A stretch of 64,000 nucleotides of DNA, from contig CAVPGY010000007.1 of the NCBI GenBank assembly GCA_963704115.1, positions 120,142 to 184,141 of the forward strand, read 5' to 3'. This document shows, in pieces, positions 3,225 to 34,285 of this stretch. Both the position numbers and the translations under genes were made by a program. The stretch's first letter is position 1; the number at the start of each line of letters is the position of its first letter. Origin of the DNA: an uncultured Chloroflexia bacterium. GTDB lineage: Bacteria; Chloroflexota; Limnocylindria; QHBO01. The notes under the pieces were generated by a model. The model saw only the letters and a list, made by a program, of their open reading frames with translations, made no database searches and was not told the DNA's origin.

Positions 3225-3545
3225 GAGTTACCGAGGCGGGTATCCAACGACGATCCGAGGACCCGCCAGTGGCCGCACGTTACCGCGCACGGAACATTGC
3301 CGACCGGATTCGACTCCGAACGGCCTCCCGGTGTCCGTTGGATACCCGTACGGGAAACCGCGCGGAGTGGGGCCACGGGCCTCCCGGCCGTTGGTTGCCC
3401 GTACGGGAACCGCGCGGAGTGGGGCCACGGGCCTCCCGGCCGTTGGATACCCGTACGGGAAACCGCGCGGAGTGGGGCCACGGGCCTCCCGGCCGTTGGA
3501 TGCCCGTACGGGAACCGCGACCACGGGCTTCCCGCAGCGCCGCCT
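3225..3545. repeat. Family B MITE-like element (about 3230-3365) whose 3-prime terminal repeat region is amplified as four 53-bp tandem units (about 3335-3545)
   Basis: Inverted termini ggcgggtatccaacg (3236-3250) and ccgttggatacccgtacggg (3335-3354). The unit ccgttggatacccgtacgggaaaccgcgcggagtggggccacgggcctcccgg repeats with a period of 52-53 bp at 3335, 3388, 3440 and 3493. cccgtacggg is an internal perfect palindrome. Confidence 0.8.
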
Positions 3546-5139
3546 CAGCCCGCGGCCTCGAACTCGACGCGAGGACGAGGCTCCGGTGTCGGCGCCGTTG
3601 ACGGAGCTTCGGGAGGATCACCGCCCAGCGATTGCCCGCGAAGGGAGACCACGGCCAGCGCCGCCAGCCCGACCGCCACGACCGCGGCGATGCCCGCGGT
3701 GAGGTGCATCCCGGCCACGAACGCCTCGCGGGCCACCTCCAGCACCACCGCACCAAGCTCCGCCGGCAGCTCCGCGGCGACGGCAACGGCACCGCCGAGC
3801 GTGTCCCGGGCCACCTCGGCGGCGGCATCCGGCACGGCGGCCGGCAGCTGGGCACCCACCGCGCCGCGGTAGATCGCGACGCCGACGCTGCCGAGCATCG
3901 CGATCCCCAGCGCCCCGCCGAGCTCGGCGGCGGTCTCACTGATCCCGGACGCGGCGCCGGCGCGCTCCGGCGGGGCGGTACCGACGATCAGCTCGGTGGT
4001 CAGCCCGAAGACGGGCGCCAGGCCGATGCGAGATCACCACCGACGCGCCGACGAGCAGCGGCAGGCCGTTCGTCGCCCCGACGCCGACGAGCATCGCGAG
4101 ACCGATGGCGCCGATGAACAGTCCCCCGCCGATCAGGTACGCCGGGCGCACGCGCTGCACGATGCGCGGCGCCAGCTGCGACCCGACGATGAACGCCACC
4201 GCCGACGGCAGCGACCACAGCCCGGCATAGCAGGGGCGAGAGCCCGACCACGAGCTGGAGGTACTGCGCCACGAACAGGAAGTAGCCGACCATCACGAAG
4301 ATCGCCAGGAAGTTCACCGCCAGCGCCGCGTTGAAGGTGCGGATCCGGAACAGGCCCACGTCGATCATCGGGTCATCCAGGCGCATCTGGCGACGGACCC
4401 ACAGCGCGCCCACGCCGAGCCCGATGGCGATCGCCGCCACGGCCATGGCTCCGACGCCGTCCTGGGCGATCTCCTTCAGGCCGAAGATGATGGCCAGCAG
4501 CGCCACGATCGACATCCCGGCGCTCAGCAGGTCCAGCCGGCCGGCGTTCGGGTCGCGGTACTCCGGCAGCACCCGCGGCCCGAGGATGAGGAGCAGCGCC
4601 ATCACCGGCAGGGCCAGCAGGAAGACCGATCCCCACCAGAAGAACTCGAGCAGGAGTCCGCCGAGCACCGGGCCGACCGCGCTGCCGGCGCTGAAGGCGC
4701 CGATCCAGACGCCGACCGCGATCGAGCGTTCCTTCGGGTCGGTGAACATGTGGAAGATCAGGCTCAGGGTGCTGGGCGCCAGCGTCGCGCCGCTGATGCC
4801 GAGCAGGGCCCGCGCCACGATCAGCATCTCGGCGCTCGTGCTGAACGCGGCGATGATCGAGGTTGCGCCGAACACCGCCGCGCCGATGAGCAGCAGCCGG
4901 CGGCGGCCGATGCGGTCGCCGAGCGTGCCCATCGTCACCAGCAGTCCCGCGACGAAGAAGCCGTAGATGTCGATGATCCACAGCAGCTGCGCGCTCGTCG
5001 GCTGGAGGTCGGCCGTCAGCTTGGGTACGGCGAGGTGGAGGACGGTCAGGTCCATCACGTACATCAGCGCGGAGAGCGCGAGCACGAAGAGGCCGATCCA
5101 TTCGCGTCGGGTCGCCTTGGGGGGAACGTTCGTCGTCAT
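3545..5139 (-). pseudogene. MFS transporter, DHA2 (14-TM drug:H+ antiporter) family, interrupted by about 3 frameshifts
   Basis: Consecutive pieces of one DHA2 protein lie in three frames: 5139-4230 (MTTNVPPK..AQYLQLVVGLSPL), 4199-4020 (AFIVGSQLAPRIVQRVRPAYLIGGGLF..) and 3898-3545 (MLGSVGVAIYRGAV..C-terminus). Confidence 0.7.
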
Positions 5140-5359
5140 CGGTCCTTTGGTCTTCTGGGGTTGCGTCGTCTCATTGGACCGATGCGGCCCGCGGAAATCA
5201 TCGGTCAAACGACGCGCATGCTCCGCGCATCATGGATGACGCGCGTGCCGAGCGACTCCGAGAGCGTTATCCAGCACGGCATGTGCCGGCGCGAGCCGAT
5301 GAGTTCCGCAAGCGACCGCCGTCCTATCCGCGAAACCAGAGACCCGAGAGGAAGCGCCA

Positions 5360-8885: not shown

Positions 8886-10174
8886 ATGCCCAGCGCTGCC
8901 CGGGCAGTCCAGCGAACGTACCTCGTGCTGACGCTGCTGACGACGCTCGCCGCCTCGTTCATCTGGGGCGTGAACACGCTCTTCCTGCTCGACGCCGGGC
9001 TGAGCAACGCGGAGGCATTCGCGGCCAACGCGTTCTTCGCCGCCGGCCAGGTGATCTTCGAGATCCCGACCGGCGTGGTGGCCGATACGCGCGGGCGTCG
9101 GTTCAGCTTCATCCTCGGCGCGGCGACGCTCCTCGCGTCCACGCTGCTCTACCTCGTGATGTGGCAGATCCAGGCGCCGTTCATCGGCTGGGCGCTGTCG
9201 TCGGCGCTGCTCGGCCTGGGCTTCACGTTCTTCTCCGGCGCCACCGAGGCGTGGCTCGTGGACGCGCTGACCGAGACGGGCTACGAGGGCGACCTGGAGA
9301 CGGTGTTCGGCCGCGCCCAGGTCGTCGGCGGTGGCGCGATGCTCGTCGGATCGGTCGCTCGGTGGCTTCGTCGCCCAGCTCACCGACCTGGGGATGCCGT
9401 ACATCGTGCGCGCGGCGCTGCTCGGGCTCACGCTGGTGGTGGCATGGGCGTTCATGCGCGACATCGGCTTCACGCCGGACAGGTCCGCCTCGCCGATCCG
9501 GGCCGTGCGCACCGTCATCGACGGTGCGGTGGACGGCGGCCTGCGCAACCGCCCGGTCCGCTGGCTGATGTTCGCCGCGCCGTTCACCACGGGCGTCGGC
9601 TTCTACGCGTTCTACGCGCTCCAGCCGTACCTGCTGGAGCTGTTCGGCGACCCCGACGCCTACGGCATCGCGGGGCTCGCCGCGGCCATCGTGGCCGGCA
9701 CGCAGATGATCGGCGGCTGGTCGGTGCGCTGGGTGCGCCGCTGGTTCTCCCGACGGACCGACGCCATGCTCGTGCTGGCCGTCGTCGGCGTCGCGGCGCT
9801 CGTGCTGCTCGGGCGTCATGCCCCTGTTCGTGGTGGCGGTGGTGCTGCTCGTGCTCTGGGCGCTGGCATCGGCCATCGAGGAGCCGATCCGTCGCGCGTT
9901 CCTCAACGCGCTGATCCCCTCGCAGCAGCGCGCGACGGTGCTCTCGTTCGACTCACTCATCGGGTCGGCCGGCGGCGTGGTGATCCAGCCGGCCCTGGGC
10001 CGCGTCGCCGACCTCAACGGCTACGCCGCCTCGTACCTGGTGGGCGGCGCGGTCCAGGCCCTCGCGATCCCGTTCATCTTCCTGGCTCGACGCGAGCGGG
10101 CGCATTCCGACCCGATCTTCGTCGAGCCTCCCGAGCCTCCCGAGCCTCCCGAGCCACTCGACGCCGATACATGA
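8886..10174 (+). pseudogene. MFS transporter interrupted by 2 frameshifts (near 9350 and 9820)
   Basis: Three consecutive frames (ORFs 8886.., 9331.., 9818..) read through one MFS protein: TM1-6 MPSAARAVQRTYLVLTLL..; the middle GFVAQLTDLGMPYIVRAALLGLTLVV..; the C-terminus MPLFVVAVVLLVLWALASAIEEPIRRAFLNALIPSQQRATVLSFDSLIGSAGG.. Confidence 0.7.
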
Positions 10175-12526: not shown

Positions 12527-13626
12527 TCAGGCCGGGACCTCGGGCCAGTGGATGGCGTCGAGCCGGCAGCGCGTGACGCACAGCCCGCAGCGTTCGCACG
12601 TCTCCCCGTCGAGCGCGGCGCGGCCGTCGACGAGGTGGATCGCACCGTAGACGCAGGCAGTCACGCAGACGCCACAGCCGTTGCAGGCCTCCGGGTCGAT
12701 GATCGGCGGGGCAGCCGGCCGGCGGGCCAGGCGCGGGTGAGCGACATCCCGGTGAGCTCCCGCGCAGTGGCGTACCCGTGCGCGTCGAGCCACGTCTCGA
12801 GCTCGCTGCGCGAGCTTACCGAAGACCGACGGACCACGAAGGATGGCGGCGGTGCAGACGCCGACCGCCGAGGCCCCGGCCATCAGCATCTCGACGACGT
12901 CGGTGCCGCGGGTCACGCCGCCCACGCCGATGACCGGCAGGTCCATCGCGCGGGCGACGTCGCGGACGCATCGGAGGGCGAGTGGCTTGAGCGCCGGCCC
13001 GCTGATCCAGCCGTGGCCGTTCGGGCCGCCGAGCCGCGGCAGCGCCGTCTCGATGTCGATCGACAGCACCGGGCCGAACGAGTTGATCGCCACCAGCGCC
13101 GTCGGCGCCCGCGTCGGCCGCGAGCCGCGCCGCGTCGGCCCATGTCCTGGCCGTGCGGGCTGAGCTTCACGAGCACCGGCACGTCGAGGGCGGCCTTGGC
13201 CGCGCGGAGCGGCGCCCACCATCGGCTCCGGGTCCTCGCCGATGTAGTGGGTCGACAGCTCGACCGCATCGGCGAACGGGGCGACCTTCGGCGCCAGCTC
13301 GGCGATCTCCGCCGCCGGTGTAGCCGAGGCTGACGATGAGCGGCAGCCCGGCAGTGCGCGCCAGTGCGTACTCGGTCTCGAGCCACTGCTCGGGCGGCAG
13401 CTCGGACCACAGCTCGGTGTTGACGAAGTCGTGGCCGGATCTCGGCCATGTTCGGCGTCGGCGGCTCGGCGGCGCGGGTCGAGATCGTCTTGGCCACGAG
13501 CGCCGCCGGCGCCGCCCTCGGCACAGGCCAGCGATCGCCGGCGCCGTCGCGGACCGGCGGCCCGGCGGCCGGCAGGATCGGGTTGCGGAAGCGGAGGCCG
13601 CAGACCTCAACCGAGAGATCGGCCAT
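12527..13626 (-). pseudogene. PreA-like dihydropyrimidine/dihydroorotate dehydrogenase-family protein with C-terminal 2x[4Fe-4S] ferredoxin domain, multiply frameshifted
   Basis: N-terminus MADLSVEVCGLRFRNPILPAAGPP.., middle FVNTELWSELPPEQW..LPLIVSLGYT and AAKAALDVPVLVKLSPH lie in different frames. The last 231 aa are intact (INSFGPV..VIGVGGV..CNGCGVCVTAC..CERCGLCVTRC). Confidence 0.65.
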
Positions 13627-13639
13627 CATCCGGCCTCCG

Positions 13640-15030
13640 ATCGTCGTGGCCAGCAGCCGGGACGGGCTGAACGGATGCGCCCCGATCTCGTCCAGGCGCG
13701 CCCACAGCCGTACCGCCTGCACGTTGGCGTCGGCGAGCAGCTCGGCCTCGTCGACCCGGGTCAGCGCGCGGTCGCGGACGACCAGCTCGCCGTCGACCAT
13801 GACGTCGCGTACCGCCGCGGCCGCGACGCCGAAGATCCAGTGCGCGGCCAGCGTGGATGCGTCGAGCGGCGTCGGAGCGGCGGTAGATCGAGGACCACGA
13901 GGTCGGCCGGCGCGCCGGGCTCGAGTGCGGCCGAGGAGCGGCTCGGCGAAGGCACGTCCCACGATGCCGGCGCCGGCGGCCAGCCGTGCGAGCGCCCAGT
14001 CGCGGCCCGGTCCCGAGCTCCTCCTCGCGGCGCCGCAGGAAGCGCGCTCCGGGACTCCTCGAACAGGTCGCCGCCGATGCCGTCGGTGCCGAGCGCCACG
14101 CGCTCCGCCGAGCCAGCCGAGCGGCGGCCGGCCCACGCCGTTGTTCATGTTCGAGCGCGGGTTGTGGACGACGGTCGACCCGCGCTCGACCGGATCAGCG
14201 CCGCCTCGGCCGGGTCGAGGTGCACGCCGTGCGCCAGCACCGCGCGGTCGTCCAGCGCGCGCGGCCGCCAGGCGCTGCACCACGCGACCGCCGGTGCGCG
14301 CGACCGGCGTCGGCCTCGTCCACCGCGTCCTCGGCCACGTGGATGTGCAGGCCGGTGCCCGTCCGCCCCGCCAGGGCGGCACACGCGGCCAGCGTTGTCG
14401 TCGGACGAGGGTGAACGACGCGTGCGCGCCGACCATGCCGCGCGCCAGCGGATAGCCGCGCTCCGCGCATCGGCGCAGGAAGCGCGCGTTCTCGGCGAGG
14501 CCGGCGGCGGCGCGCTCCGGCCCGTCGCGATCGGTCACCTCGTAGGCCAGCACCGATCGGAGCCCGAGCTCGCCGAAGGCCTCGGCGATGACGTCGCAGC
14601 GAGCCGTCGATGGCGTTCGGCGAGGCGTGGTGGTCGACGAGGGTCGTGGTGCCGGCCAGCAGCGCCTCGCGAGCGGCGACGAGCGCCGAGGCCCGGACGC
14701 ATCGGCCCGTCGAGTGCCCGGTCGAGCCGCCACCAGACGCGCTGGAGGATCTCGAGGAAGCTGCGTCGGCGGCGCCAGGCGATAGGGCATGCCGCGCGCG
14801 AGGGCCGAGTACGCGTGCGTGTGCGCGTTGACGTTGCCCGGGATCACGAGACAGCCCGTGGCAGTCGCGCGTCGGGATCGCCCGTCCCCAGATCCGGGCC
14901 GAGCGCGGCGATCCGGCCATCGCGGACATGGAGATCCGCGCGCTCGACGATCGGCGGATCGAGCGAGCGGACGACGGTCGCCCCGGTGAGCACCACGTTC
15001 ATGTCGCGACCTCCTCAGCACGCCGCCGCT
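13640..15030 (-). pseudogene. SsnA-like amidohydrolase (chlorohydrolase/deaminase family), multiply frameshifted
   Basis: GCLVIPGNVNAHTHAYSALARGMP (metal-binding HxH), GLRSVLAYEVTDRDG..GAHASFTL, GSTVVHNPRSNMNNGVG, LAGTTTLVDHHASPNAIDGSL, LHIHVAEDAVDE and a C-terminal DVMVDGELVVRDRALTRVDEAEL are spread over three frames. Confidence 0.6.
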
Positions 15031-17636: not shown

Positions 17637-17868
17637 TCGGTCGCCTGTTCCCGGTCCGAGGGGCCATGTGGCCCTGTCGGGACCGCCTCTCCGGTCCCGA
17701 CTCTGGCCATGGGCGCGCCGTGGAGCGCGTGCCGTTGGTCCCGACCTCGTGGGCCTTCGGACCCAACGGAGTACGACGCATGCAACGACCCGGCCTGGCT
17801 ACCGAGGTGGTGGACGCATCGGTCTACGCAGCGGGCGGTACAGCGCTTCCGCGAGCAGCGCGATCGTC

Positions 17869-20662
<2,794 letters not shown>

Positions 20663-20666
<4 letters not shown>

Positions 20667-21616
20667 GAAGCTTCATCGGACGCGACATCCTCAGCCTGAA
20701 GGACTTCAGCCGGGAGGACTACTTCCGCGTCTTCGAGGTCGCCAACGAGCTGCGTCCGTACGCGCGCGATCGCCGCAACGGCGATCTGCTCAAGCACAAG
20801 ACCCTGCTGACGGCCTTCTATCAGCCATCGACGCGCACGCGCCTGTCGACCGAGGCGGCGATGCATCGGCTCGGCGGCGCGGTCCTCGGCTTCAGCGACG
20901 CGAAGATGACGCGCGCCGGCGACTTCTACCAGGAGTCGCTCAAGGACACCTTCCGCATGCTGGAGTCGTACGGCGACGTCATCGCCATCCGGCACTTCAC
21001 GGAGGGCGCGCCAGCCGAGGCGGCGAAGTGGTCGTCGGTCCCGATCATCAACTGTGGCGACGGCTGGGGCCAGCATCCGACCCAGGTGCTCACCGACCTG
21101 TACACGATCCTCCTGGAGCGCGGGACGCTCGACGGCCTGACGTACCTGCTGGTCGGCGACATGCGGATGCGCACGATGCACTCCATCCTCCACGCGCTCT
21201 CCCAGTTCGACGCGGAGGCGATCGTCGTCTCGCCGCCGGAGATGGCGCTCAAGCCCGAGTTCATGGCCGAGCTGGATGCGATGAGCGTCGCCTATCGCGT
21301 GGCGGAGGCCGTACCGGAGGTGATCGGCGAGGCGGACATCATCTACATGGAGCCGGTCGTCCAGGCCGACTACACCCAGTCGCGCGTGGAGCGCGGCGAC
21401 GACGTCGCGCGCACGCCGGCCGCGTACCGGGTGACGGCGCAGCTCCTGCGCGAGAAGGCGAAGCGCAGCTCGATCGTGCTGCACTCCCTGCCGCGCATGG
21501 ACGAGCTCAGCGCCGACGTCGACGAGACGCGGCACCAGCGCTACTGGGTCGAGGCGGCGAACGGGGTCGTGCTGCGCATGGCGCTGCTCGCCCTCGTCCT
21601 CGGCGCGGCCGAGTAG
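20663..21616 (+). CDS. Aspartate/ornithine carbamoyltransferase-family protein, ATCase(PyrB)-like
   Basis: STRTR carbamoyl-phosphate motif (FYQPSTRTRLSTEAAMHRLGG), HPTQ, HSLP and a PyrB-like C-terminus NGVVLRMALLALVLG. 317 aa, intact. Confidence 0.8.
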
Positions 21617-21634
21617 CACGGAAGGAACGAACCG

Positions 21635-22613
21635 ATGCAGACCGGATTGCGCGGACGGGACCTGATCAGCCTGTCCGACTGGACGAGCGAGGAGATCGAC
21701 ACCGTCCTGGAGGTCGCCGCGCACCTGAAGCGGGAGCGGGCGCTGGGCATCCCCCACCCCCTGCTGCGGGACCGCGTGCTGGCGATGCTCTTCTTCTTCA
21801 GCTCGACCCGCACCCGAGCCAGCTTCGAGGCGGGCATGGCCCAGCTCGGCGGGCATGCGCAGTTCATCGAGAGCCGCACGACGCAGATCGCGCACGGCGA
21901 CACCCCGAAGGAGATCGGCGAGATCCTCGGCCGCTACAACGACGGCATCGCCATCCGCCACGTGGACTGGGGCGCCGGCAACGCGTACCTCCGCGCGGTG
22001 GCGGAGGCCTCCCGTGTGCCCGTGCTGAACATGCAGTGCGACCTGTACCACCCGCACCAGATCCTCGCCGACCTGCTGACGATGCGCGAGAAGCTCGGTG
22101 CGCTGCGCGGACGCACGCTGACGATCAGCTGGGCGTACGCCGCCAGCTACCAGAAGCCGATCAGCGTGCCGCAGGACCTGGTGACCGCGGCGACGCGCTT
22201 CGGCATGAACGTCCGCCTCGTCCACCCGCCGGAGTTCCGGCTCATGCCCGAGGTCGTCGACGAGGCGACGCGCGAACGCTCGTCGCTCCGGCGGCTCGCT
22301 GGAGCTGATGGACGACTTCGACGCGGGCTTCCGCGGCACCGACGTGGTCTACGCCAAGAGCTGGGGGGCGCTGCTCACCGCGAAGGACGAGGCCGAGGGC
22401 GCGGAGATCGCGACCCGCTACACCGATTGGATCACCGACGAGCGGCGCATGGCGCTCGCCGCGGACGACGCGATCTTCATGCATCCGCTTCCGGCCGACC
22501 GCAACGTCGAGGTGACCGATGCGGTCATCGACTCGCCGGCCTCGGTCGTCTTCGACGAGGCCGAGAACCGGCTCCATGCGCAGAAGGCCGTCATGGCCCT
22601 GACGATGGGCTGA
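21635..22613 (+). pseudogene. YgeW-like (knotted) carbamoyltransferase of the OTC/ATC superfamily, one frameshift near 22270-22290
   Basis: N-terminal 215 aa in frame (FFFSSTRTRASFEAGMAQLGG, MQCDLYHPHQILADLLTM). The C-terminus continues in the ORF 22308..22613 (DDFDAGFRGTDVVYAKSW..AIFMHPLPADRNVEVTDAVIDSPASVVFDEAENRLHAQKAVMAL). Confidence 0.65.
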
Positions 22614-22626
22614 AAGGGACGAACCG

Positions 22627-23574
22627 ATGGCGAAGAGCGTGCTGGTCGTGGCGATCGGCGGGAACAGCCTCATCAAGGATGCGCAGCACATGAGCGTGCC
22701 GGACCAGTACGCGGCCCTCGGCACGACGAGCGGCCACATCGCGCGGATCATCAAGGACGGATGGCAGGTGGCCATCGGCCACGGAAACGGGCCGCAGGTC
22801 GGGTTCATCCTGCGCCGTTCCGAGCTCGCCGCCCACGAGCTCCACGAGGTGCCGCTCGACGTGTGCGACGCCGACACGCAGGGCGCGATCGGCTACGAAC
22901 TCCAGCAGAACCTGGGGCACGACTTCCGACGCCTGAAGATCGACCGCCAGGCGGTCACCGTCGTCACCCAGGTCGAGGTCGACCCCGCCGATCCGGCCTT
23001 CGAGCGTCCCTCGAAGCCGATCGGCACCTTCATGGACGAGGCGCAGGCCCGCACTCGCGAGGAGCGTGACGGCTGGGCGGTCCGCGAGGATGCGGGCCGT
23101 GGGTGGCGTCGCGTGGTCGCCTCGCCGCGGCCGATCCGGATCGTGGAGGAGCGCGCCGTGAAATCGCTGCTGCGCGACGACTTCGTGGTCATCACCGTCG
23201 GCGGCGGAGGCATCCCGGTCGTGACCGACGAGCACGGGGATCTTCGGGGCGTGGCGGCGGTCATCGACAAGGACTTCGCGTCGGCGCTCCTCGCCATCAC
23301 CCTGCGCGCCGACATCTTCATGATCACCACCGCCGTCGAGCGGGTGGCGCTCGACTTCGGCCGGCCTGAGCAGCGGTGGCTCGACCGCATGACCCTGGAC
23401 GAGGCGAAGGCCCATCTGGCCGAGGGCCGCCACTTCGCGGCCGGCAGCATGGCCCCCAAGATCGAGGCCTGCATCGAGTTTCTCGAGCACGGCGGAGGCG
23501 AGGCGATCATCACCAACCCGGAGCGCATGGAGGACGCCCTGGCCGGCGCGGCGGGGACCCGGATCGGCGGCTGA
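22627..23574 (+). CDS. Carbamate kinase
   Basis: VLVVAIGGNSL, GHGNGPQVG, ITVGGGGIPVV and SMAPKIEA are canonical ArcC/carbamate-kinase motifs. 315 aa, intact. Confidence 0.9.
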   Translation: MAKSVLVVAIGGNSLIKDAQHMSVPDQYAALGTTSGHIARIIKDGWQVAIGHGNGPQVGFILRRSELAAHELHEVPLDVCDADTQGAIGYELQQNLGHDFRRLKIDRQAVTVVTQVEVDPADPAFERPSKPIGTFMDEAQARTREERDGWAVREDAGRGWRRVVASPRPIRIVEERAVKSLLRDDFVVITVGGGGIPVVTDEHGDLRGVAAVIDKDFASALLAITLRADIFMITTAVERVALDFGRPEQRWLDRMTLDEAKAHLAEGRHFAAGSMAPKIEACIEFLEHGGGEAIITNPERMEDALAGAAGTRIGG

Positions 23575-23579
23575 GGACC

Positions 23580-26267
23580 CTACGCGGCGCCGCGATGGAT
23601 CGCGGTCAGCGGTCGGACGGCGAGCGCCTCGGCCAGCGGCAGCGGCCTCGCCCACAGGAATCCCTGTGCGCGGCAGAAGCCGAGGCCGAGCAGCACGTCG
23701 CGCTGCGCCTCGCGCTCGATTCCCTCGACAATCGTCTCGACTCCGAGCTTGTGGGCGATCTGGCCGATGGCCCGCAGGACCTCCTGGCGCTGCGGCTCGT
23801 CGTCCACGTGCTCCACCAGCGCGCGGTCGATCTTCAGGATGTCGATCGGCAGGCGGCCGAGGTACTCGAGGGACGAGTAGCCCGAGCCGAAGTCGTCGAG
23901 CGCGATCCGCACCCCGAGCTGCTGGATCTGCTCCAGCTCCGCCTCGGAACCGGCGCCGGCGGTCGCCAGCGTCGTCTCGGTGAGCTCGAGCTGCAGGCGC
24001 GATGGTTCGAGCCCGGTATCGGCGAGCACGCCGGCCACGACCTCCGGCAGCGTGCCGTGGCCGAGCTGGTGCGCGGAGACGTTGACCGAGACCATGACGC
24101 CGCTGCCGGCGGTGTCGGCGACGGCGCGCCGCAGGACCCACTCGCCGAGCTGCCCGATGAGACCGGCATCCTCGGCCAGGCCGATGAAGTCGGCGGGCAT
24201 GAGCCGCCCGAGCTGCGGGTGGTTCCAGCGCACGAGCGCCTCGACACCGAGCAGACCGCCATCGCACATGTCGATGATCGGCTGATACTCGAGCAGCAGC
24301 TCATCGGTCTCGAGCGCCCGCGCCAGGGCGCCGCGCAACTCCCGGCGTCGCTTCACGGGCTCGTCCATGCCCCGCTCGAAGTGCTGGATGCGGCCCTTGC
24401 CCATGGTCTTCGCGGCATACATGGCGGTGTCGGCGTCGCGGAGGATCTCGTCGGCGGCCTCGGCGCCGGTCGCATCGGTTGTGGACGGCGTCCCGAAGGC
24501 AACGCCGACGCTGGCCGTCAGGGTGACGATCTTGCCGGCGAGCTCGAACGGCTGCCCCAGCGCGTGGAGGATGCGGCCGGCCACGGCATCGATTCGCGTA
24601 CGCGGCGCACCCTCGAGGAGGAAGGCGAACTCGTCGCCGCCCATCCGGCAGGCGGTGTCCTCCGCCCGCAGGATCCCGAGCAGGCGCTCGGCCACCAGTC
24701 GCAGCAGTTCGTCGCCGGCGGCGTGGCCCAGCGAGTCGTTGATCACCTTGAAGTCATCGAGGTCGAGGAACAGCACCGCGACGGAGTCATCGCCCGTGCG
24801 ACGAACCAGGGCGTGGGCGAGCCGGTCGACGAATAGCACGCGGTTCGGCAGGCCGGTCAGGGGATCGTGAAGGGCCTGGTGCCGCAGCTGCTCCTCGAGT
24901 GCCTTGCGGTCGCTGATGTCGACGAGGATGCCCTGCACCATGTTCGGGCGGCCGTCGGCGTCGCGGGAGATCACCGCTTCGTCGTCGATCACCCACACCA
25001 CGCGGCCGTCCTTCGCCAGCAGCCGGTACTCCCAGCGTCCCTTCGGCTCGGCGCGCTCCTGGTCGCCCAGCTCGGCGAGGATCATCCGGTCCCGATCGGC
25101 CGGATGCATGCGCGACATCCACATCGTGGGATCGGCGGACCACTCCTCGGCGGTATAGCCGAGCAGCTCCTCGATCTTCGTGCTCACGAAGTGCCAGCGG
25201 CCGTTCTGACCCGCCTCGGCCACGTAGACGACGCCCGGCACGCGCTCGACCACCGATCGGTACTGCGCTTCCGCGACCGTGAGCTCGTCGGTGAGCTGCC
25301 GTTCGCGCGAGATGACCTGCTCACGATCGGCCAGCAGGACGGTCTGCCGGGCGATCGCCCCGACGGCCACCAGTCCGAGCGCCAGGCCGGTCAGCAGCCG
25401 CAGCCAGCCGGTGACGAGCATCGGCTGCGAGATGACGGTGATTACCAGCACGCCGGCAAGCAGGGCACTGGCCAGGGGCAACAGGCCCCGGAGCCAGGCC
25501 GCGACCGCCGCGTAGGCAGGGCCGGCATCCTCCTCCGCGGTCCAGTTGGCGGCACCATGGCCCACCAGCATCGCCCCCGCCGCGACCAGCGCGTGCATCC
25601 CCCAGCCGAAGATCTCGCCCACCATCGGGACGAGCAGACCGGTGAGCCCGGCGGCAGCCAGCCCGCTGCCGACCAGCATCTCCCATGGGCCGACCGCCCG
25701 AAGGGGCACGCGGACGGTCAGGTTGAGCAGCAGGGTGGCCCCCAGCGCGGCGGTGAAGAACGCGGCCTGGACGAGGACGAGCATGCCGATCGGGCCGAGG
25801 CCGAGCCCGGCACCGGCGATGAGGGCCGCGCCGGTGATGGCCAGCAGGATGGAGGCGGCGTCGAGATAGAGCGCGAGCTCGTCCGCGGTCCGCATTCGCC
25901 CGCGGGCGGCGGAGCCGAAGGTCCCCGCGGCCGCGACGACGAGCCCGCCGATGGTGAGGCCCGCGAGGATGGGGGCGTCGGTGTCGTGCACCCCGGCCAG
26001 CCGGGCAAGCTCGGAGGCCAGCCAGACCGCGACGCCGAGGCCGATCCAGCCGCGCACCCGCCGTTCGCGCGGCGTGGCCGCCCGGACGAAGCCGCGCCAG
26101 GCAACCAGCGTGGCGGCCGTGGTGGCGATCACCCGGGCGAGGTGACCGTCGACGACCCCGGTCGCGAGCAGCGCCAGCGCGGCCACGCTCGCACCCCCGA
26201 CCAGCGGGAGCGTGATCCCGGGTCGCAGTGGCGTCGACCGAGCGAGGATTCCCTGGTTCACGGCCAT
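23580..26267 (-). CDS. Membrane sensor diguanylate cyclase/phosphodiesterase (multi-TM N-terminus, PAS, GGDEF, EAL)
   Basis: RMGGDEF (GGDEF) and ELTETTL..DDFGSGYSSLEYL (EAL), preceded by ~300 aa of hydrophobic helices and a PAS segment. Start taken at MAVNQGIL; the ORF extends to 26420. Confidence 0.85.
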   Translation of the reverse strand: MAVNQGILARSTPLRPGITLPLVGGASVAALALLATGVVDGHLARVIATTAATLVAWRGFVRAATPRERRVRGWIGLGVAVWLASELARLAGVHDTDAPILAGLTIGGLVVAAAGTFGSAARGRMRTADELALYLDAASILLAITGAALIAGAGLGLGPIGMLVLVQAAFFTAALGATLLLNLTVRVPLRAVGPWEMLVGSGLAAAGLTGLLVPMVGEIFGWGMHALVAAGAMLVGHGAANWTAEEDAGPAYAAVAAWLRGLLPLASALLAGVLVITVISQPMLVTGWLRLLTGLALGLVAVGAIARQTVLLADREQVISRERQLTDELTVAEAQYRSVVERVPGVVYVAEAGQNGRWHFVSTKIEELLGYTAEEWSADPTMWMSRMHPADRDRMILAELGDQERAEPKGRWEYRLLAKDGRVVWVIDDEAVISRDADGRPNMVQGILVDISDRKALEEQLRHQALHDPLTGLPNRVLFVDRLAHALVRRTGDDSVAVLFLDLDDFKVINDSLGHAAGDELLRLVAERLLGILRAEDTACRMGGDEFAFLLEGAPRTRIDAVAGRILHALGQPFELAGKIVTLTASVGVAFGTPSTTDATGAEAADEILRDADTAMYAAKTMGKGRIQHFERGMDEPVKRRRELRGALARALETDELLLEYQPIIDMCDGGLLGVEALVRWNHPQLGRLMPADFIGLAEDAGLIGQLGEWVLRRAVADTAGSGVMVSVNVSAHQLGHGTLPEVVAGVLADTGLEPSRLQLELTETTLATAGAGSEAELEQIQQLGVRIALDDFGSGYSSLEYLGRLPIDILKIDRALVEHVDDEPQRQEVLRAIGQIAHKLGVETIVEGIEREAQRDVLLGLGFCRAQGFLWARPLPLAEALAVRPLTAIHRGAA

Positions 26268-26391
26268 CGGTATTCGCGGGCACCGCCGAACGTGGCTTCC
26301 AACCATGGCAGGGTACGGTTGCACGGCCGGCTGGGGGATGGGCCGATAGTACCCACCGCAGGATCGCTCGGGACCGCGGTAGCCTGTCCGG

Positions 26392-27318
26392 ATGCACCCG
26401 TTCCGCTTCGCAGTCCACACCGGCGGCGGCGAGCTCGTGGAGGACTGGACGGGCTTCGCGCGGCGCGCCGAAGCACTCGGCTATGCGGTGCTGTACGTCA
26501 CCGATCACCTCGGTCGCGGGCTCTCGCCGATCGCCGCCATGGCGGCCGCGGCAGCAGCCACCGACACGATCCGCATCGGGTCCTACGTCTTCGCCAACGA
26601 CTTCCGCCATCCCCTGATCCTGGCGCGTGAGGCGGCAACGCTCGACCGGCTCAGCGGCGGACGCTTCGAGCTCGGCCTCGGCGCCGGGTGGATGCGCTCG
26701 GACTATCGCCAGCTTGGCATCCCCTACGACCGTCCGGGGCTGCGCATCGACCGGCTCCAGGAATCGTTCCGGCTCATCAGGCGCCTGCTGGGCGGCGAGG
26801 AGGTGACGCACGAGGGCCGCTTCTATCGGCTCGACCGCGCGCGGGCGTGGCCGGTCCCGGTCCAGCGACCGCATCCGCCGATCATGATCGCCGGCGGCGG
26901 TCCTCGCCTGCTGCGCTTCGCGGCGCGGGAGGCCCAGATCGTCGGGCTCGCGCCGCAGATGACCCCGACGGGACGGCCGATGCTCCGCCTTGCCAGCGAG
27001 GAGGCCTTCGCCGGTCGCGTGGAGCTCATTCGGTCGGCAGCCGGCGACCGCTTTGACCAGCTGGAGCTCAACGTGTTCGTCGCGGACGCCGGCGTGGTCG
27101 GCAGCGATCAGCCGCTCGGCGCGAGCGCCGCGGCGGTCGCCAAGTCGGCCGGCCCGGCGATCATCGGCGGCTCGCCGTACCTGCTGTACGGCACACGGAC
27201 CCAGCTGCGCGAGGCGATGCTCCGACGTCGTGAGCGTTCCGGCATCAGCTCGTACGGCATCCCCGTGCGGGCCATGGAAGCCTTCGCCCCGCTGGTGGCG
27301 GAGCTCAGCGGGCGCTGA
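26392..27318 (+). CDS. LLM-class F420-dependent oxidoreductase (luciferase-like monooxygenase family, TIGR03621-like)
   Basis: 308 aa with a luciferase-like TIM barrel pattern (VLYVTDHL, LGLGAGW, RPHPPIMIAGGGPRLLRFAAREAQIVGL). Confidence 0.75.
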   Translation: MHPFRFAVHTGGGELVEDWTGFARRAEALGYAVLYVTDHLGRGLSPIAAMAAAAAATDTIRIGSYVFANDFRHPLILAREAATLDRLSGGRFELGLGAGWMRSDYRQLGIPYDRPGLRIDRLQESFRLIRRLLGGEEVTHEGRFYRLDRARAWPVPVQRPHPPIMIAGGGPRLLRFAAREAQIVGLAPQMTPTGRPMLRLASEEAFAGRVELIRSAAGDRFDQLELNVFVADAGVVGSDQPLGASAAAVAKSAGPAIIGGSPYLLYGTRTQLREAMLRRRERSGISSYGIPVRAMEAFAPLVAELSGR

Positions 27319-27960
27319 TCAGCGCTCGGTGACCGGCTGGCGGAGCACGGTCTTGGCGCGATCCTCGCCTACCCGGTGCGGATCGTTGAGGTAGATCTCG
27401 TGATGCGGGCCGTGCGGGCGCAGGCCGGCGTCGGAGATAACGTCGTGCAGCTTCCGAATCGTGGGGGCCTCGTCCCCGTATGAGCCGACATGCAGGATCT
27501 GGGCGCTCGGCCCCTCCTCCCACTCGTCGAGCACGATCCGCTCCTCCCAGGAGCTCGGCTCGTCCGACCGCGCGGCCACGGTGACCTCGTCCCGCGTCGT
27601 GGCGTTGGGGACGGCGATGAGCAACCGCCAGCGCCAGTCATGGGTATCTGCGGCATCGCCATCGGTCGTCTCGCTCTCCTGCAGCTCCTCGGGGCTGAGC
27701 CAGTAGAGCGCCTCGAGCATGCCCACTCGCTCGTTCACGCCGCGGCCCTTGAGCAGGAAGTGCAGGCGGTAGGCGGTCCCGAACAGGGCGCCGATCGCCT
27801 CGAGGTACTCGGGACTGCCGGGCTCGGCGGTGCCGTCGATCACCAGGTATCGGGCCGCGGGCAGCCTCACGAACCGCACGCGATCACGGCGCGCCGAAGC
27901 GAGTCGCCGCAGATCGTCGCCGTGCTCGAAGGTCACCGGGGAAGTCATCGCTGCCGGCAT
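27319..27960 (-). CDS. GyrI-like small-molecule-binding domain protein
   Basis: ILHVGSYGDEAPTIRKLHDVISDAGLRPHGPHHEIYLNDPHRV and an N-terminal YLVIDGTAEPGS are typical of GyrI-like / AraC-effector-binding folds. Confidence 0.75.
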   Translation of the reverse strand: MPAAMTSPVTFEHGDDLRRLASARRDRVRFVRLPAARYLVIDGTAEPGSPEYLEAIGALFGTAYRLHFLLKGRGVNERVGMLEALYWLSPEELQESETTDGDAADTHDWRWRLLIAVPNATTRDEVTVAARSDEPSSWEERIVLDEWEEGPSAQILHVGSYGDEAPTIRKLHDVISDAGLRPHGPHHEIYLNDPHRVGEDRAKTVLRQPVTER

Positions 27961-28130
27961 CTCGATTCACCTCCGCTGCTGGAAGTGGCCGATGACGTGC
28001 GAGCCGACGACGTTGCCGAAACCCGACGAAGCCACCGAATGCAGGGTCGCCCGATCGCCTTCCCGCTTCCAGTGCCGGGTCGCCCGGATGCGGGGGCCCT
28101 TCGGACCGGGCCGATCGGCCGGATCGGCCG

Positions 28131-29570
28131 TCAGCGGGCGTAGCGGATGCCGCCGCCGCGTCGTTCCTTGTTGAGCCGTCGGTTGAGGTGGAGCCCCTCG
28201 AGGACGAACTCGACGGCGGAGGCGATGCCGGCCGGCGACTCGCCCGCGTCAAGCCGGGCGACGGCCTCGCCGAGCTCCGGGGCGGCCTTGGCCAGCTCCC
28301 CGTGGGCGCGGGAGGCGACGGCCTCGCCGACCTCGGCCTCCAGGCCCTCCTCCTCGAAGCGTTCGAGCGAGCGGCACGAGCTCGGAGAGCGCGAAGTGGC
28401 GGTTGAAGACGTTGACCACGGCCCGCGCCACGAGCTTCTCGACGACGCGGTCCTCGCGCGTCTCGTCGCCGAGCGTCTCCAGCTCGATCTTGCCGGCGGT
28501 CGATGCGACCACCGCCGGCAGGTCGCTGATCCGGGGCGCGGCGCTCGGCTCACCCAGCCGGACGGCGCGCTTCAGGGCGGCGGCGGCCAGCGTCTCGTGG
28601 TTCGCGATGCGTGACCCGCACGCTCACGCCGGAGCGCTGGCTGACCTCCGAGGAGCGACGGGCCAGCTGCGACAGCTCGGCGACGACCTCCTTCATGAAG
28701 CCGGGCATCTCGACCGGCACCGACGGTCGCCGGCATCGTCGTCGAAGGCCGAATGCCTCCGCCTCCATGATCGCGATCTCGGTCGATCGACTCCTCGGGG
28801 TAGTGCGTCCGGATCTGCGCGCCGAATCGGTCCTTGAGCGGCGTGATGATCCGGCCGCGGCTGGTGTAGTCCTCCGGGTTGGCGCTGGCGATGACGAACA
28901 GGTCGAGCTCGAGCCGGACGCGGTAGCCGCGCACCTGGACGTCGCGCTCCTCCATCACGTTGAGCAGGCCGACCTGGATCCGCTCGGCCAGGTCCGGCAG
29001 CTCGTTGAGGCTGAAGATGCCCCGATGCGTCCGCGGCAGCAGCCCGTAGTGGATCGTCAGCTCGTCGGAGAGGTAGCGGCCCTCGGCGACCTTGACCGGA
29101 TCCACCTCGCCGATGAGGTCGGCGATGCTGATGTCCGGCGTGGCGAGCTTCTCGCTGTAGCGATCCGCGCGCGGCCCACCAGGCGATGCGGCGTGTCGTC
29201 ACCCTCGCTCGCGCCACGATCGTGCGTCCCAGCGGCGAGACCGGGTGCATCGGGTCGTCGTGGAGCTCGGTGCCGGCGAGGTACGGGAGCCACGGATCCA
29301 AGCAGGCCGACCAGCGAGCCCGCGCGATGCGGCTCTTGGCCTGGCCGCGCTCGCCGAGCAGGATGACGTCCTGCCCGGCCAGGATCGCGTTCTCGAGCTG
29401 CGGGAGCACCGTCTCGTCGTAGCCGAGGATGCCGGGCAGGAACGGATCGCCCGCCGCGATCCGCGCCAGCAGGTTGGCGCGCAGCTCGCCTTCACGCTGC
29501 GCGATCGCCACCCGGCGGCGCGCAGCTCCCCGAGGGTCGTGTCGGCCGGTCGGTCGGTGGCGTGGGTCAT
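28131..29570 (-). pseudogene. ChlI/BchI-like AAA+ ATPase (Mg-chelatase ATPase family), at least 3 frameshifts
   Basis: Fragments in ORFs 29199..29570, 28693..29511, 28572..29105, 28550..28768 and 28131..28553: ILGYDETVLPQLENAILAGQDVILLGERGQAKSRIAR (Walker A region) and [68 protein letters not shown] (sensor region, resembles GTMNPEEG..LLDRFG). Confidence 0.5.
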
Positions 29571-29625
29571 GCGGGTCGCTCCTCGGGCTGCGCGGGAGGT
29601 TCAGGGTAGTCGCGAACGGCCAGCG

Positions 29626-30578
29626 TCACCGACACGGGGTCGCAGATGCCCCGCGCCGCCAGTTCCTCGAGGAAGGCCCGACGCTCAGTCGATCTCCTTC
29701 TCGAGGTCCGTCGCGGTCAGGGCCAGGCTCTCCGCCAGCACGGCATACGCCGCCGGGTCGTGCACGAATGCGCGGTGACGCGGCCACCGTCGTCGGGGAG
29801 CATCGGCGGTGCGGGCAGTGCGCTGCGCGCCCGTGAGGCTCGGAGACCGAGCTCCCCTCGATCGCGCCCAGGCGCACCGGCGCAAGCTCGCCGGCATCGT
29901 CGAGCCGGAGATGCCACGCCTCCTCGATACGGCGGTACATCCCCGCCGGCGTCGCATAGGCCGAGTACTGGAGGTAGATGGTCAGGCCGGCGAGATCCGC
30001 ATCGGTCACCTGCAGCTCGGTCCGCAGCGCTGTCGAGAGCCTCGGGCAGCGAGTCGGCGTGCATCGTGGCGCCCATGCCCCATCCCCGTGCCGGCGAGCA
30101 TCGAGCGCGCCGCGGGCGGCCCGGCCCCAGACGTAGATCGGCAGGTGGTCACTCATCTCGTTGATGAGCAGGTAGCCGGTGCCGGGCGCAATCTCGTCGA
30201 GTCCAGTCGTAGGCCTCCCACCAGCCACGCACGAAGATGCCGGTCGTGTCGTCGGGCAGGAAGTCGACGAGGGCGGAGAGCGCCGTGGTCTTGCCGGCCT
30301 GCGGCGCCTCGGAGCTGAGCATCACGCTCCTCCTGCCGGCTCACGACGGCCCACAGCGTCGCCATGAGGCGAGCGTCGATCGTCGGTGTGCCGATCAGCT
30401 CGACCGCGCTCATCGGGGTCGGCGGCGCCCAGTGGTAGCCCCACCAGCCTTCGGGGAAGCGGTCGAACCAGGCCTGCAGCGCCGCGGACATCCTCGGCCA
30501 CGGTACGCGGCGGCGGGTCGGCAGCGCAACCGACGGTCGTAGCCGCGCAGGATTCGCCGCTGACGAACGTGGCGCCAC
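29626..30578 (-). pseudogene. P-loop NTPase-like protein, family unresolved, frameshifted
   Basis: Walker A SSEAPQAGKTTALSALVDF and a downstream GYLLINEMSDHLPIYVWGRAARGALDA lie in different frames. A short internal repeat FPEGWWGYHW / FVRGWWEAYDW is present. Confidence 0.3.
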
Positions 30579-30990
30579 ACGAACGTGGGCGCATCACCAT
30601 CCCCGCCGCGGCATCCAGAACCGCGCCGAGCACCCCATCGGGCCCGACGTGGAAGTCGATGCGATCCTCGATCCAGGTGCCCGCGGCGGGCCGGCGTGAA
30701 GGAGTGGGAGTGGTTGAAGCGCGCCATCGGCCCGGAGATGGTCTCGTCCACGAACCGCTCGCCCGGCACGCGGTCCACCAGGCGGACGGTCCACGAGCGC
30801 TGCACGGGCCCCAGGCCGTAGCGGAACTCGAAGACCGAGCCGGGCCGCGGCGGGGCCGGGCTCGATGCGCACGAGCCGGATGGCGACGGGCGGCGGCATG
30901 AGGCTTCGCGAGGTTGCCGGGATCGTCGAAGAAGGTGAACACCTCGTCGATCGGCGCGGGAACCCAGCGATCGCGAACGGATGATCGGCA
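30540..30990 (-). pseudogene. SRPBCC-family (CoxG/polyketide-cyclase-like) protein, frameshifted
   Basis: RWVPAPIDEVFTFFDDPGNLAKP, SVFEFRYGLGPVQRSWTVRLVDRVPGERFVDETISGPMARFNHSHSFT and TWIEDRIDFHVGPDGVLGAVLDAAAGMVM occur in three frames. Confidence 0.5.
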
Positions 30991-31006
30991 TGGCGAGGGT
31001 ACGCGC

Positions 31007-32493
31007 TCAGATGCCGAGCGGATTGATCGGCTTCGCGGACGTGTTCTGGAGCACCGCCTTCGTCTCGGTGTACAGGTCGAGCGCCTCGAGCGACTGCTCG
31101 CGCCCGTAGCCGGACTCCTTGAACCCGCCGAACGGGACGCCGGGGAACGCCACGAAGGGGGTGTTGATGCCGATGGCACCGGACCGGATGCGCTGTGCGA
31201 GCCGGTGGCCGCGGGCGCCGTCGCCGGTCCACACGGTGGCGGCCAATCCGAAGCGCACGTCGTTGGCGATGCGCACCGCCTCCGCCTCGTCGGCGAAGCG
31301 GGTGAGGGTGACGACCGGCCCGAAGACCTCCTCCTGGCAGATGCGCGCATCGTTGGCCACGCCGCCGATGACGGTCGGCGCCACGAACGCCTCGGCATCC
31401 AGGCCATCGGCCAGCGACAGGTCGCCGCCGGCCAGCAGCTCGCCGCCACCCTCGAGGCCGATGTCGATGAATCCGCGCACCTTCGTCGCGTGGTCGCGGC
31501 TGATGAGCGAGCCGACCTTGGTGTCGGCGTCGAGGGGGTCGCCCACGGACAGCGCCTTCGTCTTCTCGGCGAAGGCCGATGCGAACGCGTCGTACACCTC
31601 GTCCTGCACCAGGATCCGGGATCGCGCCTCGCACGACTGCCCGGCAGCGTAGTAGATGGCCCACACCGATCCGAGCACGGCCGCATTGAGGTCCGCGTCG
31701 GCGAACACGATGTTCGGGCGATCTTGCCGCCGAGCTCCAGCGAGACGCGTTTCAGGGTCTGCGCGGCGGCCTGCGCGATCGTCCGCCCGGTGCCCGTCTC
31801 ACCGGTGAATGCCACCTTGTCGATCCCCGGGTGCGTGGCGATCGCCTCGCCCACCTCGCCTCCGGGACCCGGAACGATGTTCAGGACGCCCGGCGGAATC
31901 CCGGCCTCCAGGGCCAGCTCCCCGAGGCGGATGGCGCTGAGCGGGGTGGCGGAGGCCGGCTTGAGGACCATGGTGTTGCCCGCGGCCAGCGCCGGCGCGA
32001 CCTTCCAGGCGGCCATCATCAACGGGTAGTTCCAGGGGATGATCGCCCCCACCACGCCGACCGGCTCGCGGAGCGTGTAGCTCACAACCGCCGGATTGAC
32101 GACGTGCGATCGCCCGTACAGGTGCTGCGCCGTGCCGGCGAACAGCTCGAGCGTCGCAACGGCGACCTTGATCTCCGAGGCACACTGCCACATCGCCTTC
32201 CCGACGTTCCGCGATTCGAGCTCGGCGAGCGCATCGGTCTGCTCGTCGAGCAGCTGCGCCAGCCGGTTCAGCGCCCGGACTCGCTTGGCCGGCGAGGTCT
32301 TCATCCAGGCGCCCTCGAGCGCGGCGCGGGCGGCGGCCACGGCCGCATCGACGTCATCGGCGCCACCCTGCGCCACGACGGCGAGCTCTCCGCCGTGGGC
32401 GGGATCGAAGGTCGGGAACGTGCGGCCGCTCTGCGCGTCGCGGAGCTCGCCGTTGATCAGCAGCTGCGTCGAGAGATCAGTCATGCCCGGCAT
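31007..32493 (-). pseudogene. NAD(P)-dependent aldehyde dehydrogenase, disrupted by a 2-nt insertion near 31735
   Basis: N-terminal 255 aa in frame (IIPWNYPLMMAAWKVAPALAAGNTMVLKPAS, FTGETGTGRTIAQAAAQTLKRVSLELGGK). At ggcaagAtcgcccGaacatc the expected GKSPNIVFADADL is lost. The rest continues in ORF 31007..31708 (QSCEARSRILVQ.., EEVFGPVV, catalytic Cys context). Confidence 0.7.
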
Positions 32494-32528: not shown

Positions 32529-32954
32529 TCAGCCCTCGGAGCCGATGGCGTCGAGCACCTGGCGATCACCGATCGGGGTGTTCAGCTCCACGAGGACGCT
32601 CCAGGGAAGCTCCTGCTCGGGACAGGCGCCCAGGGGATCGATGATCCCGCCCACCCGCAGCTCGAGCGAGACCGCGTCCGCGCTCTCGGTCACCTCGACC
32701 GACTCGACGGCGAAGCACTGCGGACCCGGCGGCATGATGAACCCGACCTCGATGCGGGCGTTGCCGGTGACGCGGTAGCACGCGACCGGGATCGACTGCG
32801 GCCGATCGGTCATCGCCCGCGGGGAGGCCGTGAAGACCGGCTCGAAGTCGCTCGCACACAACGGGACGGGCGCGCCCTGGGGCGTGGCGCAGGCGGCCAA
32901 CGCGAGTGCGAGCGCGAGCATCGGGGCGACGTGGCGCCGCGTCATGAAGGCCAT
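32529..32954 (-). CDS. Lipoprotein of unknown function
   Basis: Signal peptide with lipobox (MLALALALAAC) followed by a ~110-aa soluble domain. Confidence 0.6.
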   Translation of the reverse strand: MAFMTRRHVAPMLALALALAACATPQGAPVPLCASDFEPVFTASPRAMTDRPQSIPVACYRVTGNARIEVGFIMPPGPQCFAVESVEVTESADAVSLELRVGGIIDPLGACPEQELPWSVLVELNTPIGDRQVLDAIGSEG

Positions 32955-32979
32955 GGCGCAATCATGCCGCCCCGGCGAC

Positions 32980-34285
32980 TCAGGCGCCGGCCGGCAGGAC
33001 GATGCGGAACGTGGTGCCCTCCGGCCCGGTCGACTCCACGTCGACGCTGCCGGCGTTGGCGGCGATCAGCTCGCGGGCGACCGTGAGGCCGATGCCGCTG
33101 CCGCCGTGCGCGCCTCGCGCGCGATCGGCACGGTAGAACCGCTCGAAGACGTGCGGCAGGTCCTCGGCCGCGATCCCGGTGCCGTGGTCCCGGATGCGAA
33201 CGGTCACCTCGCCCGCTGCCTCGCTCAGCGTGACGGTCACCTCGGCGGCGGGTGGCGAGTGCTGGATGGCGTTGATGACGACGTTGCGCAGCGCCCGCGC
33301 CAGGTGCCCGCGGTCCGCGTCCACCGGCCCCGCCCCGCCGTCGATCTCGACGCGCACGCCGCGCTCGCGGAGCAGGCCCTCGAGCCCGGCAACGATCTCG
33401 GCGACGAGCGCCTCGATTGCGACCCGCTCGGCACTCCGCTGGAGGGGAGCCGCCTCGGCGTGCGTCAGCTCGCCCAGCTGCAGGATCACGCCCGAGAGCG
33501 ACGCAGCGGCGGTCCGTGCCTTCTCGAGCTCGGCGCCATCAGCCGGCACGACGCCGTCCATCATCGCCTGCAGCTGCGATTCCAGGACCGTGGCCGGGGT
33601 GGCCAGGTCGTGGGCCAGGTCGCTCGCCGCGCGCCGGCGAAGCGTCTCGGACTGCTGGAGGCGCCCGGCCATCTGGTTGAACGCCTCGGCCAGCTCCTGC
33701 GACTCGGCATCGGGGCCGCCCTCCGCTCGGGCCGCCAGGTCGCCGGCGCCGAGGCGATGCGCCGCCGCCGCCACCCCGCGCAACGGCCGCGTCACGCGCG
33801 TCGCGACGAAGGCCGCTGCCGCGAGGAGGGCCCCGACCGCGACCACCCCGGTCAGCAGCAGCGCACCGTTGAACGCCGCGAGGAACGGGGCGCGGGCGCT
33901 CGGGACCTCGATCTCGACCCTGCCACCGCCGGCCTCGTCGCTGAGGTCCGCGATGATCGTCTCCGTCTCGCCCACGCCCGGTTCGGCTGTCCCGCCTCGA
34001 ACAGCACGGAGCCGTCGGCGTCCAGCACGCGCACCGACCCCCCGGTCTCGGTGGCAACGCGGCGCACGAGCATCGGGATGCCACGGCCGGTGCCGCGCTC
34101 CAGGCCCTCCTCGATGACGGTCACCGCCAGGGCAAGGCGCTGCTGCTCGCGAGGGCCGAGGGTCTCGTCGAGCGAGCGCGACACCGCCCGGTTGACCACG
34201 GCCCCGGCAACGACGAGGACGATCACCACGACCGCGGCGAGGACCACGGCGAGGCGGACCGCCAGCGGCCGTCCCCGCATCATGG
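32980..34285 (-). pseudogene. Sensor histidine kinase (TM sensor, HAMP, HisKA, HATPase_c), one frameshift near 33980
   Basis: N-terminus in ORF 33852..34346 (MMRGRPLAVRLAVVLAAVVVIVLVV..). The remainder in ORF 32980..33975 has the H-box SDLAHDLATP and G-box HGTGIAAEDLPHVFERFYRAD..GGSGIGLTVAREL. Confidence 0.7.

Follow-up and report, generated by a model that had tools for sequence, protein, structure and literature searches.

The window examined here, a 64,000-nucleotide (nt) stretch of contig CAVPGY010000007.1 from an uncultured Chloroflexia bacterium, contains 13 genes with broken reading frames. About 100 events that break a frame lie in 1-34.3 kb, and 35-64 kb is free of them. These frameshifts are very probably consensus-calling errors in the assembly and not a biological feature. 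Once the extra bases are removed, the underlying genes are predicted to be intact and functional, the ordinary genes of an uncultured soil member of the Chloroflexota resembling 'Candidatus Limnocylindria'.

Detection and distribution of frame-breaking events

With a G+C content of 71%, the window has long open reading frames (ORFs) in all six frames (331 ORFs of at least 80 amino acids, aa), so ORF lists alone are uninformative. Coding segments were traced as a Viterbi path through seven states, one for each of the six frames and one for non-coding sequence, using a codon log-odds model trained on the clearly intact genes of the window. In the path, same-strand changes of frame came at intervals of 50-300 bp within 12.5-19.3 kb and 28.1-31.0 kb, with isolated switches at 416/508, 4029/4228, 9355/9809, 22287, 31714 and 33978. 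Same-strand switches lacking a stop codon at the junction numbered 55 before 34.4 kb and one after it, the latter being a trivial 4-nt gene-boundary artefact at 44502, and each coding segment in 35-64 kb was one complete ORF. Translation along the path gave sensible proteins.

Among public sequences, the window is closest to those of uncultured soil Chloroflexota of the 'Candidatus Limnocylindria' type. Loci L081, L082, L085, L086, L091 and L092 (82-88% nt identity) were aligned by blastn over 12.5-30.4 kb, and L083, L084 and L001-L003 (79-88% nt identity) over 28.1-32.5 kb; 0.4-10.1 kb was compared with L093, L094 and L095. A consensus event was defined as a difference between the window and the majority of at least two covering relatives by a number of bases that is not a multiple of three. 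By this definition 93 events were found, of +1 (75), +2 (9), -1 (6) and -2 (3), giving 84 net insertions against 9 net deletions (about 9:1), essentially all of 1 bp. Further events at 506, 4029, 4228-4231, 9359, 9814 and 33969-33984 were identified from one to three relatives together with the Viterbi path. No consensus frame-breaking event was seen where relatives cover 35.9-38.6 and 41.1-43.0 kb.

The original prediction for this stretch had described disrupted genes interleaved with intact ones in the first 35 kb, and this description was borne out. The Viterbi path, the count of frame switches and the alignments to relatives all confirm that the frames of the listed genes are broken. The genes named as intact (GGDEF-EAL, FAD/BBE oxidase, PALP-470, sigma factor and carbamate kinase) are clean, and 35-64 kb, said to be undisrupted, contains only the switch at 44502. 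Comparison with related genomes, which had been proposed as a check, found contigs syntenic with the window in which the affected genes are intact, and the events are absent from all 13 aligned relative loci. The statement that the lesions are single-base insertions wherever they can be resolved holds for most events and needs a small correction at 31718-31722, where the net change of +2 is either one 2-nt insertion or two adjacent 1-nt insertions, the alignments fitting both.

The density of events was 10.4/kb in 12709-19077, 0.1/kb in 19078-28366, 9.6/kb in 28367-30971, about 1/kb in 31-34.3 kb and zero in 35-64 kb, a heterogeneity far beyond chance. At the rate of the main patch about 28 events would be expected in the 2.7-kb GGDEF-EAL gene, in which none was observed. 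A uniform error rate, as had been argued from the outset, cannot explain such a pattern; errors would have to be patchy. The sparse events include close pairs at 416/506 (90 bp apart), 4029/4230 (200 bp) and 9359/9814 (455 bp) as well as the two adjacent bases at 31718-31722, with singles at 22270 and around 33975; such a spacing suggests small faulty patches and not a low rate that is even throughout. Within the operon at 17780-23574, the five genes carry about 16, 0, 0, 1 and 0 lesions, respectively. Since these genes belong to one pathway, the decay of a dispensable module does not fit this distribution.

Selection on the repaired genes

Window-specific extra bases were stripped and the codons were then compared with those of the relatives, as the ratio of non-synonymous to synonymous differences (pN/pS). 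The riddled genes had ratios of 0.12-0.25, with values of 0.115 for the PreA-like gene, 0.25 for the SsnA-like gene, 0.20-0.21 for the xanthine dehydrogenase-type gene (XDH), 0.17-0.18 for PALP-497, 0.14-0.18 for the AAA5 ATPase, 0.21-0.23 for the P-loop protein, 0.16-0.25 for SRPBCC, 0.14-0.15 for the aldehyde dehydrogenase (ALDH), and 0.17 and 0.19 for the first and second MFS transporters. Ratios of the clean genes spanned 0.04-0.32, and OTCase-325, with its single insertion, gave 0.04-0.09. Furthermore, the repaired riddled genes contained no in-frame stop codon over about 4,400 codons.

Private substitutions, at which all relatives agree and the window differs, report on the window's own branch. 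At codon positions 1, 2 and 3 they numbered 19, 10 and 43 in XDH, 6, 7 and 21 in PALP-498, and 8, 8 and 29 in the SsnA-like gene, compared with 14, 6 and 25 in the clean PALP-470. Private substitutions in the riddled genes thus fall mostly at third positions, at rates equal to those of clean genes, with no excess at codon positions 1 and 2. PALP-498 carries 15 private insertions against 34 private substitutions, of which only 13 lie at positions 1 and 2. Drift sufficient to fix 15 indels should leave many more substitutions, spread evenly over the codon positions, together with some nonsense codons. As judged from their codons, the riddled genes carry the same signature of purifying selection as their intact neighbours.

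Likewise, the repaired products resemble complete proteins. The repaired XDH showed 85% identity to intact 871-aa proteins over 100% of its own length, even with a crude repair. The repaired ALDH has intact homologues of 491-494 aa (93% identity), the repaired MFS transporter at 3526-5154 has intact homologues of 528-569 aa (93% identity), and the repaired PreA-like protein is 93% identical to that of L091. The indels therefore occur without substitution damage, in genes that look fully functional after repair.

Lesion spectrum and sequence context

Resolved insertions (n = 53) comprised 40 that differ from both neighbouring bases and 13 that duplicate a neighbour, where 28 duplicates would be expected of random insertion (P < 5e-5, simulation). 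Neighbour-duplicating insertions are too few for the events to be slippage mutations. Bases inserted among the 40 were C (17), G (13), T (9) and A (1), following the composition of the genome, and the codon phase of the insertion sites was even (9:8:7). No site motif was found, the maximum at any position from -7 to +7 being 0.22-0.28 bit (99.9th percentile of the null, 0.32). A mild tendency for C to be inserted between two Gs was noted.

Several simple causes were considered and rejected. Homopolymer-driven errors and slippage were ruled out, as 75% of the resolved insertions extend no run. The homopolymer association that is the classic signature of nanopore, 454 and polished PacBio data was not seen, which argues against that class of error and not against an artefact in general. 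Methylation or another motif at the sites was ruled out by the absence of any motif. Cross-mapping of reads to conserved genes does not account for the pattern either, since lesions riddle XDH (87% nt identity to L081) and spare the OTCases and carbamate kinase, which at 91-93% are the most conserved genes. Finally, the 13-17 kb patch coincides with the G+C maximum of the window (0.74-0.75), but G+C in the 28-31 kb patch (0.71-0.72) does not exceed that of clean regions, arguing against a dependence on G+C.

Origin of the frameshifts

Consensus errors would consist of false single-base insertions, about one in every 100 bp, in patches where the contig was left uncorrected or poorly corrected, these bad patches being embedded in well-corrected sequence. 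Likely reasons would be a very low effective read depth, a failure of polishing or a fill sequence derived from long reads. The source may well be a long-read metagenome-assembled genome (MAG), as suggested by a contig of 500,544 bp in a soil member of the Chloroflexota; like the contigs of long-read MAGs, it is both long (500 kb) and unannotated. Catalogues of long-read soil MAGs have been produced with metaFlye/Flye and one round of Medaka, with no short reads, and their authors note that where coverage is low, errors reduce the coding density (PMC12313526). Within the patches of the window, errors at about 1% would be of the order of raw-read accuracy. Indel errors that fragment ORFs of long-read or hybrid assemblies into apparent pseudogenes have been addressed by Kastor (PMC12007338) and ARAMIS (PMC8574707). 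The window resembles such assemblies in that single-base indels break conserved genes with no signal of decay by substitution, and in an apparent dependence on the local quality of correction. Assembly error dependent on coverage was one of the two explanations offered originally; the evidence favours the assembly-error part, and we infer local depth or polishing as the cause.

Two sets of observations weigh against consensus errors. The signature is atypical of the errors that remain in long-read assemblies, consisting of insertions outside homopolymers with no detectable excess of mismatches. In polished PacBio assemblies of GC-rich genomes, residual errors are mainly deletions in G/C homopolymers (PMC8574707), whereas about 90% of the events in the window are insertions, mostly outside homopolymers, in sharp patches of 0.1-6.4 kb. 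Moreover, the patch edges at 12709, 19077, 28367 and 30971 all lie 20-230 bp from a gene boundary (rough chance about 0.02), which hints at some structure at the level of genes, not expected if read depth were the only factor. Three of the four edges lie 170-230 bp inside a riddled gene; the main patch begins about 170 bp into the PreA-like gene, and at its other end it falls about 210 bp short of the stop codon of PALP-497. Events cluster independently of gene function, with the caveat that the edges of the big patches are within 230 bp of gene boundaries.

The other explanation offered originally, gene-specific decay under relaxed selection, would make the roughly 100 insertions real and the genes genuine, very recent pseudogenes that had become dispensable. 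Thirteen genes with broken frames beside intact neighbours, patch edges near gene boundaries, and a cluster at 12.5-23.6 kb that is an accessory island, missing in L083, L001 and L003, would all suit such an origin. Several frameshifts per gene with intact genes interleaved are likewise seen in neutrally decaying bacterial pseudogenes, such as those of leaf-nodule Burkholderia and Mycobacterium leprae. Real pseudogenes, however, show raised dN/dS, nonsense codons, a deletion bias and power-law indel sizes (PMC6054270), none of which is present in the window. Here pN/pS is not raised, nonsense codons number zero and private substitutions retain their third-position bias. The indel to substitution ratio is about 1:2 to 1:4, whereas under neutral decay substitutions far outnumber indels. 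Curated pseudogenes of GC-rich Burkholderia have an insertion to deletion ratio of 0.76 and power-law indel sizes (PMC6054270), compared with about 9:1 and only 1-bp changes in the window; in addition, three quarters of the resolved insertions extend no run, unlike the products of slippage, and genes of a single operon and pathway differ as widely as 16 lesions and none. An unknown insertion-only mutational burst, almost without substitutions, would be required. Decay is contradicted by pN/pS, stop codons, private substitutions, indel spectrum and operon pattern together, and we consider it quite improbable, the refutation reaching as far as sequence alone would allow. A mixture of strains, in which single-nucleotide polymorphism (SNP) alleles of two co-assembled strains are strung in series to give a false 1-bp insertion, would be consistent with an origin in a complex soil community, where microdiversity is frequent (PMC12313526), and with the strain-variable presence of the island among relatives. 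Insertions are nevertheless not enriched beside third codon positions, where SNPs concentrate (9:8:7), and many lie in stretches that are invariant across all relatives. Such a mixture, which seems quite improbable, would still be an artefact and a sub-case of consensus error.

Systems that correct the frame at many sites include +1 frameshifting in Euplotes, mitochondrial frameshifts in Perkinsus, the bypass elements of Magnusiomyces, and editing in Physarum and kinetoplastids. By analogy, the genes could be functional and recoded, the extra bases being present in the DNA and, at expression, either deleted by RNA editing or skipped through +1 frameshifting or bypassing by the ribosome on a massive scale. 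Many frame corrections per gene with purifying selection maintained are common to those systems and the window, and purifying selection on the repaired frames is also what recoding would predict. In contrast to those systems, which use defined signals, act genome- or organelle-wide and are shared by relatives, the window shows no motif (maximum 0.28 bit), a random codon phase and a patchy distribution. Any of the four bases can be the insert, the sites are absent in relatives at 86-88% nt identity, and none occurs in 29 kb of the same contig, whereas genome-wide decoding would be expected to act there too. No such recoding or editing system is known in bacteria, and we regard this possibility as extremely improbable. 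The broader idea of new biology, that is, a bacterial process not yet known by which individual nucleotides would be removed or skipped at dozens of sites outside homopolymers in each gene or, as a weaker variant, an undescribed, insertion-specific, regionally targeted and very recent mutational process, is to be considered very improbable.

If the frameshifts are consensus errors, their main value is as a caution. Automatic annotation would report 13 pseudogenes in the window, among them an entire 'decaying' module of selenium-dependent purine catabolism, from which an evolutionary story could be built. Consensus errors can be separated from real decay without reads whenever relatives of 80-90% identity exist. 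For this, lineage-specific indels are stripped, pN/pS, nonsense codons and the codon positions of private substitutions are compared with those of neighbouring genes, and the indel spectrum is compared with that of real pseudogenes. The unusual signature, with sharp kb-scale patches, non-homopolymer 1-bp insertions at about 1% and no excess of mismatches, may interest the maintainers of long-read metagenome pipelines.

Gene map and neighbouring features

Features of the window are listed below, with Pfam families of the cluster genes taken from gene calls in the relatives. The second error patch covers the AAA5 ATPase, P-loop and SRPBCC genes. In relatives, the P-loop protein measures about 300 aa and the second MFS transporter about 415 aa.

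Features of the window, with protein sizes in relatives and the frame-breaking events assigned to each
Feature	Coordinates	Strand	Size in relatives (aa)	Frame-breaking events
Gene without a Pfam family, 245-aa type	70-1171	-		Frame change near 506, probably a second near 416
DHA2-family MFS transporter	3526-5154	-		2 events: 1-bp insertions at 4029 and 4228-4231; remainder clean
Second MFS transporter	8886-10133	+		2 events: 1-bp insertions at 9359 and 9814 (L095 alignment; Viterbi agrees)
Main error patch	12709-19077	both		66 events in 6.4 kb, almost all +1; four genes; 2-6 relatives
PreA-like (DHO_dh + 4Fe-4S)	12543-13629	-	373-375	9 insertions, 1 deletion
SsnA-like amidohydrolase	13626-15002	-	453	17 insertions, 1 deletion
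Selenium-dependent xanthine dehydrogenase-type molybdenum hydroxylase (XDH)	14999-17636	-	871	20 insertions, 3 deletions
PALP-497 (CysK-like; also PALP-498), first in operon	17780-19287	+	497-498	15 insertions, 1-2 deletions; nt identity 91%
PALP-470 (ThrC-like) and OTCase-317	19284-21616	+	470 and 317	Clean; no window-specific frame-breaking event
YgeW-like OTCase-325	21635-22613	+	325	Single 1-bp insertion at 22270-22271, seen against 4/4 covering relatives
Clean stretch: carbamate kinase, GGDEF-EAL (23580-26267 aligned), LLM-class luciferase-like oxidoreductase, GyrI-like	22627-27964		315 (carbamate kinase)	No consensus event inside genes
Second error patch	28367-30971			About 25 events in 2.6 kb; consensus of 3-6 relatives
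AAA5 ATPase	28131-29553		473-479	About 12 events
P-loop protein	29613-30538			About 10 events
SRPBCC	30539-30991		150-155	3-4 events
Aldehyde dehydrogenase (ALDH)	31007-32484	-	491	Net +2 at 31718-31722; otherwise clean
HAMP/HATPase histidine kinase	32986-34283	-	431	One frame change between 33969 and 33984
Undisrupted remainder	35000-64000			

Individual alignments support several of these assignments. For the first gene, tblastn of the L093 homologue splits between frames -1 and -2 at around 503-540, and the L093 alignment places a 1-bp insertion at 506. Both insertions of the DHA2-family transporter are seen with each of L093, L094 and L095. Over the second patch, tblastn with L001-L003 proteins splits across three frames, and the L083 kinase aligns in frame -3 for residues 1-100 and in frame -2 for residues 105-431, in agreement with the Viterbi switch at 33978. 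Two further 1-bp insertions relative to two relatives, at 5167-5168 and 32489-32491, are non-coding and lie just upstream of the MFS and ALDH start codons; either errors of the type seen in the genes or natural variation between genes could account for them.

The cluster at 12543-23574, comprising the PreA-like, SsnA-like and selenium-dependent XDH genes, two PALP genes, two YgeW-like OTCases and carbamate kinase, is an accessory island. It is present in L081, L082, L085 and L092. In L083, L001 and L003, from which it is absent, the SDR gene (11.6-12.5 kb in the window) adjoins GGDEF-EAL (23.6-26.3 kb). The ATPase, P-loop and SRPBCC trio is kept beside ALDH in L083, L084 and L001-L003. Part of the AAA5 ATPase (28788-29168, 127 aa) is 99% identical in protein sequence to L003, although for the GGDEF-EAL protein next to it identity to L003 is only about 64%. 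A second response-regulator and histidine-kinase pair at 57410-59304 is paralogous to the pair at 32986-34999, with aa identities of 47% and 32% to those of L083.

Database searches

Nine of ten intact window proteins were found exactly on record, all from one unannotated 500,544-bp NCBI/ENA contig. Sequence of the same species was not found elsewhere among genome contigs (best match 66% aa identity, for GGDEF-EAL) or JGI metagenome contigs (best 82% aa identity), and a collection of 5.8 billion proteins contained no same-species protein among homologues of the repaired proteins (best 85-93% aa identity). A plasmid collection gave no meaningful match to the window. Scans of the whole 64 kb for tRNA genes and for Rfam families at the gathering score found neither.

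Over 13 kb, L081 (DATHVT010000094.1, GCA_035461145.1) is fully syntenic with the window, at 87% nt identity. At NCBI its organism is given as 'Patescibacteria group bacterium' despite this synteny with a Chloroflexota-like window; wrong binning of the contig or misclassification of the MAG is the probable reason.

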